A stretch of DNA of 64,000 bases, taken from NCBI GenBank assembly GCA_964016885.1, contig OZ024743.1:124992001-125056000 (forward strand), given 5' to 3'. The notes beneath the pieces were generated by a model. The model did not search any database. It was not told the DNA's origin and saw only the letters and a list, made by a program, of their open reading frames with translations. The DNA is from Eledone cirrhosa (Eukaryota). This document shows, one piece after another, positions 4,391 through 63,554 of this stretch. Position 1 is the stretch's first letter. Every line of letters starts with the position of its first letter. A program made the translations under genes and the position numbers.

Positions 4391-5707
4391 TTGTTAAAAC
4401 GACTCGAGGTACTAGAACTTCTCCACCTGTTTCAAGTGAACTCCACTCACGTGTAGAGTGCACTGCACAGACTTCCTTGAGAGGTCGAGTGTCTCAATCT
4501 TCGCAACACTGATTTCAGTCCTGCTATCCATGTCGGAGATCACCTCCCGACGAGTTAAGTAATACCATGTTGTCTGAAAATTCCAGCTGACTGATCCTAC
4601 TATAAATTTGGAGGGACAATGGCAATCCCATTGTTTAGGTGTAGTGTCAGAAATTACTACACAAGTGAGGGTGTGGATACTCACAAGTCCCCGGCTGTTG
4701 GAATGTGATATGGATTGGGAGGGAGGATTTGCTTCTCGAAGCTTAGGTTAAAAGCAAGGTCTCTGTGGGTGGTGCAAGTTTATGCGCTAAATAGTCAGAA
4801 TACAGATCCTTCGTCGGTGAAGTCACTGCAGCTTTAGATGTAGTTAAGACCCGAGTTATATATCATAATGGGAGACTTCAGTACACATGTTGACACTGAC
4901 CATCTGATATGGAAAGGAGTGGTTTGAAGGAACGGCGATCCTGATCTAAAAACGATTGAAGCGGCCATATTAAAGTTCTGTTTTAGTAACGAGCCCTCTA
5001 TTATGAACACATTCTTCCAGCATAAAGACATCCATAAATACATATTTATTACTTACGATAGAAATATTTATGACACATTTAACTATGACATTACTGTATA
5101 TAAATAGTTCTCAATAGTTGTCTATGACAGCACTCAACATTTATTACCTTACTTCCTTAAAATGTTTATTATATATACATTTACTCATGACATGTAATGC
5201 TGGATGTAGGCACAAGCAAAATAAGCTGCAGCTTAGGATCTCGCAATGCACACGGACTAAAAATCATCATCATCATCATCATAAGTTAATGTCCAGGCAA
5301 GGGTTGGACGAGTCGTCACGAACCAATTCGGAACCACTGATTTCTCAGATGAATCTGCCCCAGCACCAGAGAAGTGTTCATGTCTTTGACACAACTGGAG
5401 GGTCTCTCTACCCTTTGTTTGGCTAGTTTTCTATGGCCAGATGCCCTGCCTGTCATCAAACACTTTACTGGGAGCGTTTTAGGTATGTTTTCAATTTTTG
5501 TGAGGCCATCCTGTATACTTATTTAACAAAGAGCCTCCAGATTTTATATAGATTTAGTTTTGATACATTTATTTATGCCATTAGTATATGTAAGTACACC
5601 TCTTTGAAATGTTTGTATGTATAAATTTACAAATGACACGAGTCTATGATAGTACTAAACATTTGTTACCACCTTAAAAAATATCTTTGATACATTTGTG
5701 TGAACAT

Positions 5708-12253: not shown

Positions 12254-13394
12254 AGGAGTTATAAAGAGAGAGTGGGGGTGAGTGAATAGTGATGGAAAGA
12301 GAGATCAAATGCATACGTGTTCGTGTACGTGTTAGGTTTTGACTTGGCGACTTAACACAACCAGCCATCAAAAATCAATACGTCCTAAGTGACTCCTGAC
12401 TGAGCAGAAATATGATTCACCTCATTCCAACCATGACCACCATATCCTTCACTCGAATATTTATCAACTTGGATTATATTAGTAAATTTAACCCCACCGC
12501 ATCCTTTTATAATAATTGTTTCTACTTTTGGCACAAGGCCAGCAGTTATTGCAGTGCATTACTGGTACTATATTTTATCGGCTCCGTAAGGATGAAATGC
12601 AAAGTTAGCCTCGGCGAGGTTTGAAGTCAGACCGTAAAGGGTCGTAACTCTATGCTTCCTTTTAATATAATAGCATGTAATTTGTGGGAGATTTAGTTAA
12701 TAATTCTAGTAAGTCGAGCAACCACGTTGATTCGTATAAACCAGTGTATTAAGTTACCATGTAAATAAGCAATTTGTGCATTGGCAGAATTGGTAAAGCT
12801 GTAGCAGTGATTTGATCTCTCAACAAAGTAGGTCAGGTCTCCATATATACTGACCCCTGGGCAATTCGGTGTTCAGTTTTTATCTTAAGCTGACGCCACT
12901 TAGTCTGGAGAAACTGAAGTCAGCGGCAGTTTATTTGAGATAAGATTGTCTTAAGGACATTCTGCTCTCGTTTCTCGTAAGAGTCAGACATCACAAGGAG
13001 TTGCTCTAGCAAGTAGAGAGATGTAGCGCTTAGCCAAACACTCCGACCCTCTCAACAAGGGCCAACAGCAATTCTTCCATTGGTACTTTAACAAAGATCA
13101 GTCCACACAACACGTCAGATAACATCTTTTGAACCATTGCACACACGCATTCACCGCAATAACTTAAGCCTTGTTTTCTTACATTGTCAACAATAGACTC
13201 GTAGCAGGTTATTAAATTAATAAATATATTTAAGAAGCGATTTGGTTTTTATTTCATTACCTATATGATCAGGGTAAATCACTTACCCAAGGAATCATTA
13301 CATCATCATCATCATCATCATAATAAATACTAAATCACTTGCACACGCGCAATATCTGATCACACTGTATCTGGCACATCAATCTCCTTCGCCT

Positions 13395-16190
13395 ATACTC
13401 TACTCAAACGTGATCATACTACCGCAGCGTGGAGATGCAGAAACTGTCTCTTCCCCTCGTCTGCCCAGCCACGGCCGTCTGGCACACCACCAGATGAGAC
13501 AACGAGCTTGCCTGACGCCCAAGCCTCGCTGGTTGACATCGCTCGGCTCAGGCGACTCCGTGAGATCCAACTCAGGATCCCGAGAGCGGTCTGGGTGCCG
13601 GTAGCCGATGCCCTCGCGTCCTCGATTAAGAGCGCTCTGGAACCTAATCGAGCCAGCGACTGGGAGCGACTCTTCCATTTCGCTCCACTCCCGCTCGGCC
13701 TCCCCAGGTCTGGCGCTGACCGAGGCGGCCGGTCGATAGCAGCCTTTGTCAAGGTAAATGTTTCGTCCTTTGGGCAAGCGCCCATTCCAAGCGTGCCTAA
13801 GGATGCCACACACCCCACTCTCGGGTGCCTCCAATTCTCCACCCCCGAGGCCAGCGCCAAGCGTTTGCGTGACCGCGTAAATGTCAAATTAATCATGGGT
13901 GATGTCTCGGCCGCAGTCAGAGTGGTTGCCTCAGAAGACACTGTCCTCCAACCCACCGAGGAGGTACTGGCTGCCCTGCGACTAAAGCACCCTGAGCCAC
14001 CCGCTGACCTCAGACCCATAACCCCACCCGATCCCCTCTTGCTCCTTGTGGCTTCCGACGCAGACATCATGTCCGCCATCAAGTCCTTCCCAGCTAGCAG
14101 CAGCAAAGGTGGTGATGGTCTCCGACCAGGCCACTTCAAGGAGATGCTACCCCCCACCCGCCTTCTGAGTGCAATTGTGGCGCTCATCAATTGGCTTATC
14201 CATGGCGCCCTGGACCCTCACGCTCGAGGCCTCTTCTTTTCAGCTAGCATAACCACTGTCAGGAAGAAAGAGGGTGGCCTATGCCCCATCGCTGTGGGCA
14301 ATGTCTTCCGGAGGCTGGCTGCCAAGGTGGTCTGCAGGTCCATAACACCCGAACTGGGTGAGGAGTTCAGTCCGGTGCAACCGGGTGTCGGCGTGTCCGG
14401 TGGCTGTGAGGGGGCGACACATGCAACCAGGCAGTTCTTCAACAGCTGCCCACCGGAACCGGCATCCAGGGACTCCAGACACCTCATTGTCAAGCTTGAC
14501 ATGAGGAATGCCTTTAACTGCATACGCCGGGACCATCTGCTCGATGCCTGCCTCAGCCGAGCCCCCTCTGCCTACCCGCTGGCCTACCTGTCATATGGAG
14601 CCCCGAGCATTCTCCTCGCTGCTGATACTGTCATACCTTCGGCCACTGGGGTCCAACAGCACGACCCTTTGGGCCCCTTCCTGTTTGCCCTTGGTATAGA
14701 CCACATCGCCCGAAGTATCACGGGCCCTCTCAACGTTTGGTATCTGGATGATGCTACGTTGGGCGGGCCCGTACAGACTGTCTGCCATGACCTACAATCG
14801 GTGGTTCCTGTCCTGGCGGGAATCGGCCTCCAGGTCAACTCATCCAAGTCGGAGGGGTGAATGTCAGCCACGATACTGAGAGCTTTGCAGCCTCCGTCTC
14901 GGACGTGCGGTCCATTCTCCACCAGGTACAGGTGACCCCCAAAGAGGATGTCCTCATCCTCGGGTCACCGATCCACCCGCCGGCCATCCGCTCCACAATC
15001 AGGTCCAAGCTCCAACAACTCCAGACCCTCACGAGCCGACTGGGTTTGATCGACGGCCACCCAGATATCTTTCTGTTGAGAAACTGCTTCGCCATGCCGA
15101 AGCTCCTCTATACCCTTCGCAACGCTCTGTGCTACACCCACGCATCTCTCCTCGCTGACCTCGATACTTGTATCCGAGCAGCAGCCGAGGAGATATGCAA
15201 AGTCAGGTTTGACGACATTGCTTTGTCGGCGTTTCTTTCGTCGGTAACCTCATGCCGCCTCCTCGTCAGCAGGGTTCTCCAAAACACAATAGAACCCTCT
15301 GTGTTCAGGGAACATGAGGCCGCCTGTGAGACCTGGGACCGGCTGGGACTTAGCCCAGTAGACGTCCCTCCTCCTTATCCCCCTGCTGACGTCAAGACCC
15401 CCCAAAGCATTTGGGAGGCCATCCAGTGCAGCCTGGCTTCAGACCGGTTCACGCGCCGGCTCGACCAGCACCGCCTTGCTTGTTTTCGTGCGGCCTCCAA
15501 ACCCCACAGTGGTGCCTGGCTCCATGCCTTGCCCTCCTTCTCCACTGGCACGCAGCTAGATAACAATAGCCTGCGCATCGGCGTTTCCTTGAGGCTCGGC
15601 CTCCGGATTTGCAAGCCACACCAATGTGGCTGTGGATTCACCGTGGACTCTTTCGGCCTCCACCCGCTTTCCTGTCGCCACAGTGCCGGCCGCCTTCCAC
15701 GCCATCCTGCCCTCAACGAGGTCATAAAGCATGGCTTGGACGCTGCAGGCTTCCCTTCCCAGCTCGAGCCGGTGGGGCTGGACCGAGGGGACGGCAAAAG
15801 GCCAGATGATATGACCATCTTCCCATTCCGCGGTGGTAAACTTTTCGTCTGGGATGCCACATTCACCAACAATTTCTCCAGTCACAACCTGGTGCTGTCT
15901 GTGACTAACCCAGGTTCTGCTGCCCGTTTGTCTGAGGAGGCCAAATTTTTCAAATAAGAGTCACTCTCCGACAGGTTTGCAGTTGTACCCTTGGCAGTGG
16001 AGACTTCTGGTGTCCTCGGCCCTAGGGCTACCTCCCTACTCACCACCATAGGCGCTGAGCTGGCTAACCGCAGGTGTGAGCCCCGCGAGCTGGAATGGCT
16101 TTTCCAGCGCATCTCCCTTGCCGATCTCTGGGGAAACGCCTTCTCCATTCTGTCCGCCGGGACTGTGAGGAGGCCACCAATATGATTGAC
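13395..16190 (+). mobile_element. CRE-clade non-LTR retrotransposon (RT + CCHC + RLE), disrupted
   Basis: GC-rich island. RT motifs PIAVG..RRL, KLDMRNAFN, GVQQHDPLGP and YLDD (ORF 13508-14860). HPLSC..RH..LN, KRPDDMT..P...WDAT and FQRISLA..GNA RLE motifs. Frameshift at ~14857 and stop at 15955-15957. Confidence 0.9.
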
Positions 16191-50611: not shown

Positions 50612-53398
50612 GTTCTTTGAGTCTCAGTCATTGATGTTAGTTAACTGGAAAGTTTGTTGAAATGAATATCAAGCCACTACCTGCAGCCTCAGATATTCAG
50701 GACGTATCGGAGGGTTCTTGATGTTCCCAGCAAGCATGCCTTTTGAAGCGTTCCAAAAAGCGTGGCGGGGCCAATTTTCTTTAACCATGCCTGGAAACTT
50801 TTTGAGATAGTCCCTAGTGCGCCTATGACAATTGGGACCACTTTGACTTCATGGCAGTTCCAAATCCTTTTTACCTCCCACTTTAAGTCCTGATATCGGT
50901 TAATTTTCTCCCTCTCCTTCTCTTGCACTCTCGTGTCGAATGGGCAGGCCACATCCACAATCAGGCACGATCTTTTTTCTTTGTCCAAAACCACCAGGTC
51001 AAGTCTATTGTGTTCCAGTTTCTTGTCCGTCTGTATCCTAAAATCCCACAGCACCTTCATCTGATCGTTTTCTATCACCGCCTCTGGCTTATGCTCATAC
51101 CACTTCTCAGAATGTGGTAAATTGTTTACTTTGCATAGGTGCCAGTGGATCACCCTGCCCATCACATCATGTCTCCAGCCCTTATAGTGAGTCTGGTCTA
51201 GGTGTTTACACTCGGATACAATGTGAGCCACAGTCTCCTCTCTCACTCCACAGACCCTGCACAGTGGGCAAGCCTCCTCCTTGTAAATATGGTGTTTCAA
51301 CCACTTCGTTTTGAGGGCCTGCTCTTGCGCAGCCATTAACATTCCTTCTGTAGCCTTTTTAAGGTCTCCTCTTTTCAACCAGTTCCATGTCTGTGGATCT
51401 CTGAATTCAGTTTTCTCAAAGAAGGTACTATGAACGGATTTTTAATGAAGGCTGCTCTTTCTCCTTGTTGTTATTTCCTCCTTGGACATCCCCTGGTCTA
51501 TTGTCCTCTCCTTCAGTACAGTTCTGAGCATTGGCTCCTTACTATCAGTCACGTATTTGTGTAGGTTGTTTTTCTCCATCAGAACACAGTCCTCTATGCT
51601 GATAAGACCTCTTCCACCCTCAGATCTCCTTAAGTAGAGTCTATCGACATCACTCCTCTTGTGGAACATGTTGTAGATAGTCAATAGCTTCCTAGTCTTC
51701 CTATCCATTTCTTTTTGTTCAGCAACATTCCATCTCAGAATTCCCACACTGTACCTAATAATAGACACAGATCGGGAATTTACTGCACTTATGGCATTCC
51801 TACTGTTCAGATGTGACTTTAATACGCTCCTTACTCTCCGAATGTATTCAGATCTTATCAATTCCTTCATTTTTTTTTTGCTCTTGATGTCATCAGCCTC
51901 CAGAACACCTAAATACTTGTATCTTTCTTCAGTGTCAATTTACTTTATCATCTCACCTGTTGGTACCTGGATTCCGTTGCTTCTGCTCAATTTACCCCTC
52001 TTCATCACAATGACTCCACACTTACTAATACCAAATTGCATACATATATCATTGCTGAAAATACGGACAGTGTCAACAAGCACATCCAACTCCTTCTCAC
52101 TCTTCCCGAAGAGCTTAAGATCGTCCATGAAGAGGAGGTGATTGATGGTAAGCTCTCCCTTTCCCAACTTGTATCCTGCTCTCACTTTTCGCAATATAAT
52201 GGTCAGGGGCATCAGGGCAAGGACAAACAACAGAGGGGACAGACTATCTCCCTGGAAGATACCTCTCTTGATCTTCACGCCTCCCAAGGATTCTCCAGCT
52301 GATGTTAACTCTGTTTTCCAGGACTTCATACTTTTGCCCAACAACTGTCTGATGTTATCTGCCACCTTGAAGATCTCTAGGCTTTTGGTGATCCAAGAAT
52401 GAGGCACCATGTCAAATGCCTTTTTGTAGTCTATCCATCCCATGGCAAGACCAGTGTGTCTCCTCTTGCAATTCCTCATTACCATCTTATCAATAAGTAA
52501 CTGGTCCTTTGTACCACCGGACTTCTTTCGGCATCCTTTCTGTTCGTCCGGTAACAAGTTGTTTGTGTGGAGGTGATGGTAGATTTCCTCAGACATAATG
52601 CTTGTCAACAGTTTCCACATTACGGACAGACATGTGATAGGTCTATAGTTGGTAACATCATTACCCTTGATTCGGTCTTTCATTACCAGAACTGTGGTAC
52701 CTTTTGTCAACCACTCTGGTACCTCACCTGACATCAAGCAGTCATTGAACATGGTTGTCAGTTTCGGGTGGAGGGATGTTATATTTTTAATCCGATACCC
52801 CTGCACACCATCTGGGCCTGGTGATTTCCAGTTGGTTAGTTTTTTGGCCTGCCCCTTAAGAGTTTCAACTGTGATACTCAAATCAGTTTGCTGGTGTGCC
52901 TGTCACTAATCTCTTTTTGTACTGTCTCAATCCACACTGCCTGGTCATTATGTTTAACATCCTGCTCCCATATTCCTCTCCAGAATGTCTTAATTTGTTC
53001 CGCTTCAGGGATCAAGTCGTTGCCTCTTTCTTTCCCTTCAAGCTGTCCAAACAGCATCTTCTGGTTGTTGTCAAACATGCGGTTCTGTCTATACTGACTG
53101 ACTCTGCTCTCGTATCGCCTAATTTTTGCACTCTTTGCTACAATGCGTTGCTTTAGTTCCTCTATGATAATATTTAGCTTTTTCCTCCTAGTTTTGTACT
53201 TTATTTCCAGTCTATTTTTAGTGTCTATGTTTTTTAGTGCCCCATTCAGTAGGGACTCAAGCTTTCCAATGTCATTTCTCATTTCCCTGATTTGACCATT
53301 CAGTCGTTTCTTCCACCAAGGCTCTGATCTTTCTTGTTTATTGTTTCCTCTCGCTTTTATACAAAGTAATTTCCTCACCGCATTTGCTGTTGCTTTGA

Positions 53399-56125: not shown

Positions 56126-57017
56126 CGAGGTGGGTCAGAACATTTCCAGGACTGGTCACAAAAGATTTATTTCAAACCCAAACTTCACACTAAGAGTTTT
56201 CTCCTTCAAAGTAACCCCCTGGAGTCTAATGCACTTTTCAATCCTTTTCTGCCACGCTTGCATGCACTCCTGAAAGGATTCTTCCGGGATCCTGCGCTGT
56301 TCCGTCGTCACGGCCTTTTTGAAGTCGTCCACGTCTTCAAAACGGGTCCCCTCCGGGTCGTACTCGAACATCCATGACTCATCACCGGTGATGACTGTCT
56401 CTAGCAAGTCTGGTTCGGTTTCAAGATGCTCGAGGATGTCCTGGCACACTTGCATGCGTCGACCCTTCTGGTCATCGTTCAGCAGTTTTGGCACCATCTT
56501 CGCGCAGACTTTCCGCATGTCCAAATCTTCAGTGAGAATCTTCCAGACGCTGTCCCGATTCCTACCCAGCTCATTTGCCATCAGTCGAGCAGTCAGCCGA
56601 CGATCGCTACGCACCATCTGCCTGATGCGCTCAACGTTGACCTCAGTCCCGGTTGTTGAGGGCCTTCCGCTCCTGGGGTCATCTTCGACGTCCTCGCATC
56701 CTTCTTTAAACCTCTTGCACCACTCAAAAACACGTGAGCGTGCTATCGTCTCATCTCCATACACTTGCTGCAGCAATCCCAGTGTTTCTGACGGAGTTTT
56801 CAAGTTTGTTCGTTGCTCTGTGCTCATTGCTTGACGACCTGAAACAGAGGACATGTATATAAAATTATGAAGAAAAGAGTTTGATCTCTGCAGAGATCTA
56901 AGATTACAGTTACATACTCCAGGGGATTACTTTGAAGGAGAAAACTCTTAGTGTGAAGTTTGGGTTTGAAATAAAACTTTTGTGACATCAGTCCTGGAAC
57001 TTTTCTGACACGCCTCG
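56126..57017 (-). mobile_element. Mariner transposon, internally deleted, with ~100-bp TIRs
   Basis: TA TSDs at 56124-56125 and 57018-57019. Transposase remnants VFEWCKRFKEG..VEDDPRSGRP, KVCAKMVPK.L and ITGDESWMFEYDPE are fused directly to GTRF, so most of the DDD domain is deleted. Confidence 0.92.
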
Positions 57018-61200: not shown

Positions 61201-61557
61201 TGTGTGTGTGTCTGTGTGTGTGTCTGTCTGTGTCTGTCTATATAGATAACAAAGAGGGTGTGGTAAGATACCAGAGGGACCATAAGGCACCAGTGTACTC
61301 AATACTCGGAGTAGTAGAGTGGGTAATATGAAATGATTCAGGACCCCGACGGCTGAACTCCGGCCGTTTCGACAGCTAGATCCGAACTTAACCACCAGAA
61401 ACGGCCGGGGCTCAGCCGTCGGGGTCCCGAATAATTTTATATATATATATAGTAATAATGATAAATATGAAGACTAAAATACAAAGAGGGCTCGATAAGG
61501 ATAAATATATATCAAATATACTAGAACCCTAAAGCAAATATTTATTAACTTTAATCT

Positions 61558-61880
<323 letters not shown>

Positions 61881-62568
61881 ACATTTGTAAGAGTTCCACT
61901 CTCATCCACTCTCTGATGAGAAATCTATTCCTAGCTGGGGAGGTGGGGCAGGTCAAAGAATTTGATGGTTGCTACCTACTCTATGATATTCCTTGCATCC
62001 AAAGCTTTCCCTATATTTCGAAGAAAGGGAGAGAAAGGGAGGGAGGGAGATGGGAGGTAATGGAGAGGAGAGAGAGATTGCTATACTTAAGTTACCCTGT
62101 AAATGACCGTATCGTATTAATACTCTTCAGTGTGCCCTGCGATATCCATTTTCATTCATAAATCTAGATTAAGATTATTCCGGTAGATCAGAGGTCAGAG
62201 GTCAGGACAGCGATCAGTCTAGAAAGTTTATTTATGAGCTTAAAGTTCTAATTTTGACTTACGCCTAGAGTGTAATAGCGAAACAAACTGAACTTCATAA
62301 AATAGTAGTAACATCAGTAACATATTGGAAATATATCAAAAGCTAGACTATATTTTATCTACTGAGTTCGTGAACAATGAATTATCTCCTCTTTCAATTT
62401 TTACTGTCCACCCTTCAAAAATATTATATAGTAACCATTATAGTGACAGCAATTTCGACAATATTCTTTAAATGACTTTTCCTTATAGTTATACCATTGC
62501 GAGTTTCTTTTCTTTTCTGTTTAATCTGTGCTTTCTAATTTTTTCACGGTATATATATATATATATAT

Positions 62569-63518
62569 ATACATTATGAAGAGAGAAGAAACATTTAGAT
62601 ATAATTAGTAATAAAATGTATCATACCTAAACTGTTCCTAAATTCCTCGACTACGTAGTTTCGTGGCATAAACAAAAACAATATATCAAAGATATAGAGT
62701 CCTTGCGAGGTCTGCCGACTTATCAAGAGGATACCTCATTTTACTAGTCTCAAGAACGCGTCTACACGACGTGAGAAAGAATCCCAAAAGGCGGAGGGGG
62801 AGATAGTCACGCGATATAACGGTCGAGAAACAGAGCTAAGCCTCTTATAACCACGAAGAAAATACCACGGAGGCGGAGGGGGTATTCATATCGAGGCCGC
62901 AGAAGAGGTAGTGAAGAAGGCGAGAAGTATGAGTAATGGAAGCTTTCCAGTTGTCCCCACACTTCAAAGATTGCTCGACCAGAGGGAGTTATTAATATAT
63001 TTAGAAACACACAGATACATGCGGATACACACATATATACATGAATGCATCCGCACCCAACTGTGAGTTAAGGGTGCCAACTTCACCGATGTTGCTCAAT
63101 GAATGACTGGGACAGACCGCGTGACTATCTCCCCCTCCGCCTTTTGGGATTCTTTCTCACGTCGTGTAGACGCGTTCTTGAGACTAGTAAAATGAGGTAT
63201 CCTCTTGATAAGTCGGCAGACCTCGCAAGGACTCTATATCTTTGATATATTGTTTTTGTTTATGCCACGAAACTACGTAGTCGAGGAATTTAGGAACAGT
63301 TTAGGTATGATACATTTTATTACTAATTATATCTAAATGTTTCTTCTCTCTTCATAATGTATTTTTAACTCTGATACTGGTTCAGTCTAGTTCAAACTGA
63401 ATTGGTCTGTCCCAGTCATTCATTGAGCAACATCGGTGAAGTTGGCACCCTTAACTCACAGTTGGGTGCGGATGCATTCATGTATATATGTGTGTATCCG
63501 CATGTATCTGTGTGTTTC

Positions 63519-63527
<9 letters not shown>
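62569..63527. mobile_element. ORF-less hammerhead-bearing element with nested double inversion, in (TA)n
   Basis: 62569-62813 is the reverse complement of 63118-63362 (245 bp), and 62995-63118 is the reverse complement of 63404-63527 (124 bp). Confidence 0.85.
63200..63287 (+). ncRNA. Type I hammerhead ribozyme, U3-A8 core variant with branched stem II (identical minus-strand copy at 62644-62731)
   Basis: UCCUC-UUGAUAA-GUcGGCA...UGCCAC-GAAA-CUACGUAG-UC-GAGGA. Stem I has 5 bp, stem III is the palindrome ACUACGUAGU, and the triplet is GUC. Confidence 0.8.

Positions 63528-63554
<27 letters not shown>

Follow-up and report, generated by a model that had tools for sequence, protein, structure and literature searches.

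A 591-nt tandem element with a predicted hammerhead and two fixed insertion ends in the genome of Eledone cirrhosa

The closest described systems are the metazoan non-LTR retrozymes and the PLEs. Retrozyme circles have been shown by northern blot and PLE-made tandem cDNA has been proposed, the circles as RT templates being a hypothesis so far (PMC7229834), and retrozymes have been linked to pLTRs by phylogeny (bioRxiv 10.64898/2026.07.22.740005). For PLEs, inverted copies and a tail that is often at one end have been noted, and the origin of the tandem and inverted structures and of the one-sided tails is stated to be unresolved (PMC8557442). PLE biochemistry has shown that RT starts at two internal sites and that both strands are nicked and extended, and a dimer is predicted; unprocessed RNA was the main in vitro substrate, and the start sites were alike by strand (PMC11167929). 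A U3-A8 minimal hammerhead has been described in PLEs, with activity as a dimer proposed (PMC4209133), and twin priming and dual priming are described for L1 (PMC2837659). Retrozymes and PLE inversions are already known, and the element described here is a variant with a non-canonical ribozyme.

The window locus and its family

The locus in the window, the 64,000-nt stretch of E. cirrhosa DNA that was analysed, is one young insertion into (TA)n of a tandem element whose 591-nt unit is non-coding. The original prediction described a nested double inversion with arms that look identical by eye and no protein-coding signal, and this was borne out: both inverted repeats are present at 62564-63532, one pairing 62564-62813 with 63118-63367 (250 nt, 99% identity) and the other 62990-63118 with 63404-63532 (129 nt, 98% identity), the A arms differ at 0 of 243 and the B arms at 2 of 129 positions, and the element has no stop-to-stop frame above 86 aa. 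The order of the segments is also as first read, with B-u-A on the minus strand from 63118 to 62569 and A-x-B followed by (TA)n on the plus strand from 63118 to 63527. In the sense of the ribozyme, the locus runs (TA)n, minus-strand arm, 63118 junction, plus-strand arm, (TA)n, and both outer ends are sense 3' ends, that of the P arm (site P, unit 426) adjoining the left (TA)n and that of the T arm (site T) the right one; a target-site duplication is unreadable inside (TA)n. The 63118 inversion junction is spanned by none of the independent reads and contigs listed. The features are as follows.

62550..62568, no strand: left (TA)n target tract, from the sequence
62569..63118, minus: P arm, unit 468 to 591, then 1 to 426, 0.93 unit, from unit mapping (locus L050)
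62645..62730, minus: predicted U3-A8 minimal hammerhead, P-arm copy, by inspection (motif class from PMC4209133)
62814..62994, minus: segment u, equal to unit 1-181, from unit mapping
62985..63008, minus: B-u junction, unit 591/1, where site T is read through (1,637 exact genome copies)
63118..63118, no strand: head-to-head arm junction with a 1-nt overlap, from arm mapping
63118..63527, plus: T arm, unit 182 to 591, 0.69 unit, from unit mapping
63201..63286, plus: predicted U3-A8 minimal hammerhead, T-arm copy, by inspection (core invariant between subfamilies)
63362..63364, plus: site P read through in the T arm, unit 426-428, 80-82 nt past the predicted cut
63496..63496, plus: rare 560A allele, common to the P arm (63026, minus strand)
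63528..63552, no strand: right (TA)n target tract, from the sequence

Elsewhere in the window, 61655-61695 (plus strand) resembles a minimal hammerhead of the C3-G8 type whose stem II is short, and probably marks where another PLE ends. At 61265-61440 lies a repeat that contains a hairpin, and similar sequence beside the (TA)n ends at L177, L190 and L006 suggests another TA-associated family. RT fragments and a mariner-type HTH fragment are found at 13334-14860, 51940-52902 and 56156-56926.

The permuted unit, predicted to be about 590 nt, is 591 nt long: a search of the species' own genome (3.0 Gb; 820 candidates, 40 scored) found many loci where copies follow one another every 591 nt, forming head-to-tail arrays that are scattered through (TA)n. 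The B-u junction, whose recurrence had been proposed as a check, recurs as 1,637 exact copies across the genome (control 0); exact site P ends (unit 426 then TA) number 1,937 (control 0) and site T ends (unit 591 then TA) 1,075 (control 1), all three counts being lower bounds. At least 1,900 copies of this young non-coding element with a predicted hammerhead are present in the genome. An older subfamily (2,738 candidates), with a consensus 84% identical to the young one, has the same circular order, both ends and the ribozyme core. The caveat that the ATATAT at the B-u junction might reflect a chance template jump can be ruled out, since the junction is fixed and is kept in the older subfamily. 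The unit is without an ORF, its best tblastn match to eight PLE ORFs has an E of 0.07, and attachment to a PLE ORF, also proposed as a check, was seen in none of the 189 insertions mapped below. The unit forms tandem genomic repeats with one type I hammerhead motif each (by inspection), and the PLE-type traits of 5' truncation, an inverted 5' copy, a tail at one end and a microsatellite target are present. We are nearly certain that the family is genuine and consists of non-autonomous, PLE-type retrozymes, both young and abundant.

In both subfamilies the unit has two copies of a 12-nt pyrimidine-rich motif, at 113-124 and 195-206, 82 nt apart; the P-T distance is about twice this spacing, and the motifs are possible protein-binding sites.

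Half or more of the unit's words were found in 13 runs under 10 organism labels, in two of them as one contig of 620-621 nt; no RNA run was among the holders listed. We rejected these runs as evidence of spread to other species or of circles, since assembly will circularise a tandem repeat and low-level carry-over of host DNA is enough to explain them. Hi-C DNA labelled as organism F gave four partial reads and no real element cover in 1,938 million letters, and the contig run with the same label contains the element with TA junctions and no unique flank.

The two ends and the ribozyme

Insertion ends fall at two fixed sense-3' points of the unit, 426 (P) or 591 (T). The 210 loci mapped were drawn from the best genome-search hits and from chromosome C1, where P and T ends and B-u junctions had been listed, a sampling in which a third end type is under-represented and P+P or T+T pairs would still be caught. 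With 23 duplicates dropped (22 refetches and one segmental copy), 187 loci with 189 insertions were kept, comprising 106 two-armed P+T insertions, 76 single-armed ones (48 P, 28 T) and 7 others that are three-piece, interrupted or cut by the locus edge. All clean two-armed insertions were P+T, with no P+P and no T+T among the 189, where an independent choice of ends would predict 46% mixed pairs, and inward-facing end pairs at 1-129 Mb of C1 were mixed in 24 of 24 cases. One insertion is present twice at 19.62 Mb of C1 (L088 and L089), 2.55 kb apart, which is a local segmental duplication.

TA runs at unit 309 and 547 are at least as long as the run at T and are not used as ends, which indicates that the end sites are not set by complementarity alone. 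When P and T were aligned as duplicated motifs, the score was matched by 53 of 1,000 shuffles. Arms range from 0.04 to 6 units (longest single arm 6.05; arm sums up to 9.6), and the lengths of the two arms are not correlated (rho -0.15, n=53); a negative correlation in an earlier, smaller set was due to short loci and vanished on the larger set. One arm could be contained in the other in 79 of the 106 two-armed insertions, while neither is contained in the other in 27, including the window locus, and 3 are fully disjoint.

No fixed 5' end was found among the unit's insertions. Inner ends are spread round the unit with an approximately twofold excess near the predicted cut (13 of 294 against 6.5 expected, in an interval picked after looking, with 3 ends exactly at cut+1), so that some templates were probably linear. 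Overlaps of 1-3 nt occur at 18 of 27 arm junctions, a raw count uncorrected for chance, and the arm junction of L045 is a palindrome. The largest cluster of inner ends is at unit 520-529, where a single 10-nt bin has 16 of the 294 against a mean of 5, at the foot of a hairpin before site T, and is perhaps an RT stall point.

The hammerhead originally placed in segment A is, as seen by eye, a predicted minimal type I motif in which U3-A8 replaces C3-G8. Rfam hammerhead models gave no match to it at gathering level or at E<=10, and automated hammerhead scans missed it. In the T arm, stem I is formed by 63201-63204 and 63283-63286, the core lies at 63205-63211 and GAAA at 63269-63272, stem II is long, stem III is palindromic (duplex -13.1 kcal/mol) and the predicted cut falls between 63282 and 63283, after unit 346. 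It is not a canonical type I hammerhead with loop 1-loop 2 contacts. The circular monomer has a predicted fold of -174 kcal/mol in the sense orientation versus -128 in the antisense (z=-6.2, 40 shuffles). Between the young and old consensus sequences, 35 of 49 changed pairs are kept, 4 of them through two-sided changes, against 44+/-5% in the null, and 0 of 300 randomisations reach the observed value. The maintenance of the fold between subfamilies that are about 84% alike points to selection on the sense RNA. In this predicted fold, the 3' half of the ribozyme would pair with the sequence that runs up to P, so that a monomer would be kept from cutting itself.

Template, mechanism and candidate partners

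Units differ by 0.27% within an insertion and by 1.95% between insertions, and 10 of 2,553 lineage-site cells that are covered multiply (129 insertions) are polymorphic within an insertion. The 133 insertions with enough overlap contain 44 private variants present in every pass, 14 that are partly shared and 290 confined to a single pass. The every-pass variants come from 33 of the 133 insertions, 22 of them extending across both arms and 17 being present in at least three passes; L134 has 5 private variants in 7-8 passes, L308 has a 20-nt deletion in both passes, and the rare 560A of the window locus is present in both arms. The partly shared variants come from 8 insertions, among them L031, where two occupy matching registers in the two arms, in keeping with a linear template of several units or with conversion at a later stage, and L035, where they are in adjacent units. 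With 189 insertions mapped versus at least 1,937 P ends, private variants could derive from an unsampled parent. Passes across the predicted cut show at most 2 of about 420 differing per position and no scars. A>G changes account for 11 of the 44 every-pass private variants versus 20 of the 290 single-pass ones (p=7e-4), so that the two kinds of change seem to arise at different steps. On the larger insertion set the A>G excess held, but its strand bias weakened (11 versus 7 T>C, p=0.055), 3 of the 11 came from one locus and no neighbour preference was found; A-to-I editing of the template is a lead only.

It is likely that a PLE-type RT copied one circular RNA from two fixed start sites, rolling round it. 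The 591-nt RNA circle and the ribozyme cleavage are inferred from the sequence, and a circle rolled by two RTs most simply explains the phasing of variants, the scar-free read-through and the spread of inner ends. Tandem transcripts would be cut by paired minimal hammerheads, and the cut RNA would be ligated to a 591-nt circle that is bound in trans by a PLE protein, probably a dimer. The GIY-YIG domains of this protein would nick both strands of (TA)n, and one RT would start at site P and the other at site T, one per nicked target strand. How far each RT rolls round the shared circle would vary, and each would displace the cDNA of the other; the two cDNA 3' ends would be joined, often over a few shared bases, to give head-to-head arms, while success of a single priming would leave one 5'-truncated arm. 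The two internal start sites, the nicking and extension on both strands and the predicted dimer of PMC11167929 fit this scheme; the main use of unprocessed RNA and the start sites alike by strand in that work count against it. The original prediction had proposed reverse transcription of a tandem or circular RNA with template switches. Its unit stands, but two separate primings at fixed sites explain the two arms better than switches do, given that neither arm is contained in the other at the window locus.

The same two-site priming could instead have had as its template an uncut linear transcript spanning several units of an existing array, either a single RNA or two RNAs with a common source, with arrays kept uniform through DNA conversion or unequal exchange. 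Such a template would suit the 8 insertions with partly shared variants, among them L031, where the variants lie in register, and L035, where they occupy neighbouring units; a Poseidon PLE used mainly uncut RNA as its substrate in vitro (PMC11167929), and local amplification is the favoured model in bioRxiv 10.64898/2026.07.22.740005. However, every-pass private variants outnumber partly shared ones by 44 to 14 and have a spectrum unlike that of the single-pass variants, 290 of which stay unhomogenised, and arm sums reach 9.6 units, yet the longest single arm is 6.05 and there is no 5' run-off point, making a linear template unlikely in our view.

Self-priming, which has been proposed for head-to-head PLE repeats (PMC3846280), would let the first arm fold back and be copied into the second, with trimming where the sequence is rich in TA. 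The 79 of 106 insertions that permit containment and the palindromic junction of L045 agree with this, but it is contradicted by the 27 non-contained insertions, with the window locus and the 3 fully disjoint cases, by the single arms that occur alone at T (28) or P (48) and by the longer TA run at unit 547 that is unused as an end, and we regard it as highly improbable. There is equally little chance that the unit is the mere pLTR of a coding PLE or that the nested structure is an assembly chimera: the 63118 junction is without an independent spanning read or contig among those listed and 150 of 10,595 GIY-YIG candidates were scored, but unit-to-unit joins occur at 1,637 places, none of the 189 young insertions and 30 loci of the older subfamily was seen to run on into an ORF, the unit has no homology to the coding PLEs tested, and each locus has its own junction and flanks, with the same layout in the diverged subfamily.

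The genome has 10,595 GIY-YIG candidates, and one family, PLE-E (L181), is a candidate, unproven partner of the unit. It encodes 938 aa, with an RT match below and a GIY-YIG match above the Pfam cut-off and CxxxxCxxC before the nuclease, and appears Neptune-like by the description in PMC8557442. It has a U3-A8 minimal hammerhead and enters (TA)n with ends at two sites, 2,964 at one and 6,894 at the other; its spacing from cut to first end is about 79-82 nt versus 80-82 in the unit and the last bases look similar, with no alignable homology between the two. Inward-facing PLE-E end pairs at 1-48 Mb of C1 were mixed in 27 of 29 cases, and the other two, apparent E2/E2 pairs, proved to be separate insertions. 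Three further PLE families with similar ribozymes are present in the genome. An apparent retrozyme-PLE chimera at L053 turned out to be a case of nesting in a short PLE copy, at its TA end, and the 7 hits for a partner with the same stem III and a shorter stem II were all family variants.

Many short two-armed PLE-E copies on C1 (L231-L237, L244, L245) share one 5' stop, which falls at 4757-4763 of the monomer, some 70 nt ahead of the ribozyme cut. This suggests that a linear transcript begins there or that a small, non-autonomous version exists. Among loci L159-L199, the RT/GIY-YIG PLE families that end in (TA)n and have a U3-A8 minimal hammerhead number at least four, at least three of them with two alternative ends and unequal tail lengths.

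Returning to the circular template, we give even chances to a more specific version, in which the two RTs of one PLE dimer would roll round a single, sometimes A-to-I-edited circle, with start sites tied to strand and cDNA ends that anneal and prime the second strand. If true, this version would amount to proof from the genome that retrozymes cycle through circRNA and, since the coding PLE in the genome obeys the same end rule, would give a general account of PLE inverted repeats and one-sided tails. The two-site rule is absolute here and common to a coding PLE in the same genome, and we found no report of a strict rule of this kind or of single-template phasing in full-text searches of openly accessible articles. 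The family offers thousands of young, short, readable insertion records, its 591-nt substrate suits an in vitro test, and a compact RNA directing two-strand integration at (TA)n would be of wider interest for retroelement mechanism.

Comparison with known systems

Like the metazoan non-LTR retrozymes (PMC7229834; bioRxiv 10.64898/2026.07.22.740005), the family has non-coding tandem units with one type I hammerhead each, co-occurring PLEs and a strongly self-paired predicted circle. In contrast to their canonical ribozymes, that of the unit is of the PLE-type U3-A8 minimal class, and its 591 nt compare with 170-400 nt (PMC7229834) and 51-972 nt (bioRxiv 10.64898/2026.07.22.740005). Its insertions differ in having PLE-type inverted arms with two fixed ends, within-insertion phasing has no report for metazoan retrozymes in the parts of these two sources consulted, and the circle is deduced from sequence here, whereas those of PMC7229834 were seen by northern blot. 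As in L1 twin and dual priming (PMC2837659), both target strands prime and an inverted 5' part is joined internally, but here both start sites are fixed and the cDNAs overlap and exceed the unit length, which is not obtainable from one linear monomer. MRC1 and other non-autonomous Chlamys PLEs (PMC8557442) are likewise non-autonomous with head-to-tail multicopy insertions; their 3' ends are in general similar to that of an autonomous family, whereas no such homology was found for the unit.

The family shares with EN+ Neptune and Poseidon PLEs (PMC8557442, PMC3846280, PMC11167929, PMC4209133) the 5'-truncated tandems, the inverted 5'-truncated copy, a tail at one end only, the (TA)n bias, a U3-A8 minimal hammerhead with palindromic helix III and a first start site about 80-90 nt past the hammerhead cut. 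It differs from them in being without an ORF, in a tail of 163 nt versus 30-40 and in a whole monomer of 591 nt with up to 6 repeats per arm. The one-end tail, a tendency in the EN+ PLEs as described in these sources, is absolute in the unit (106/106).
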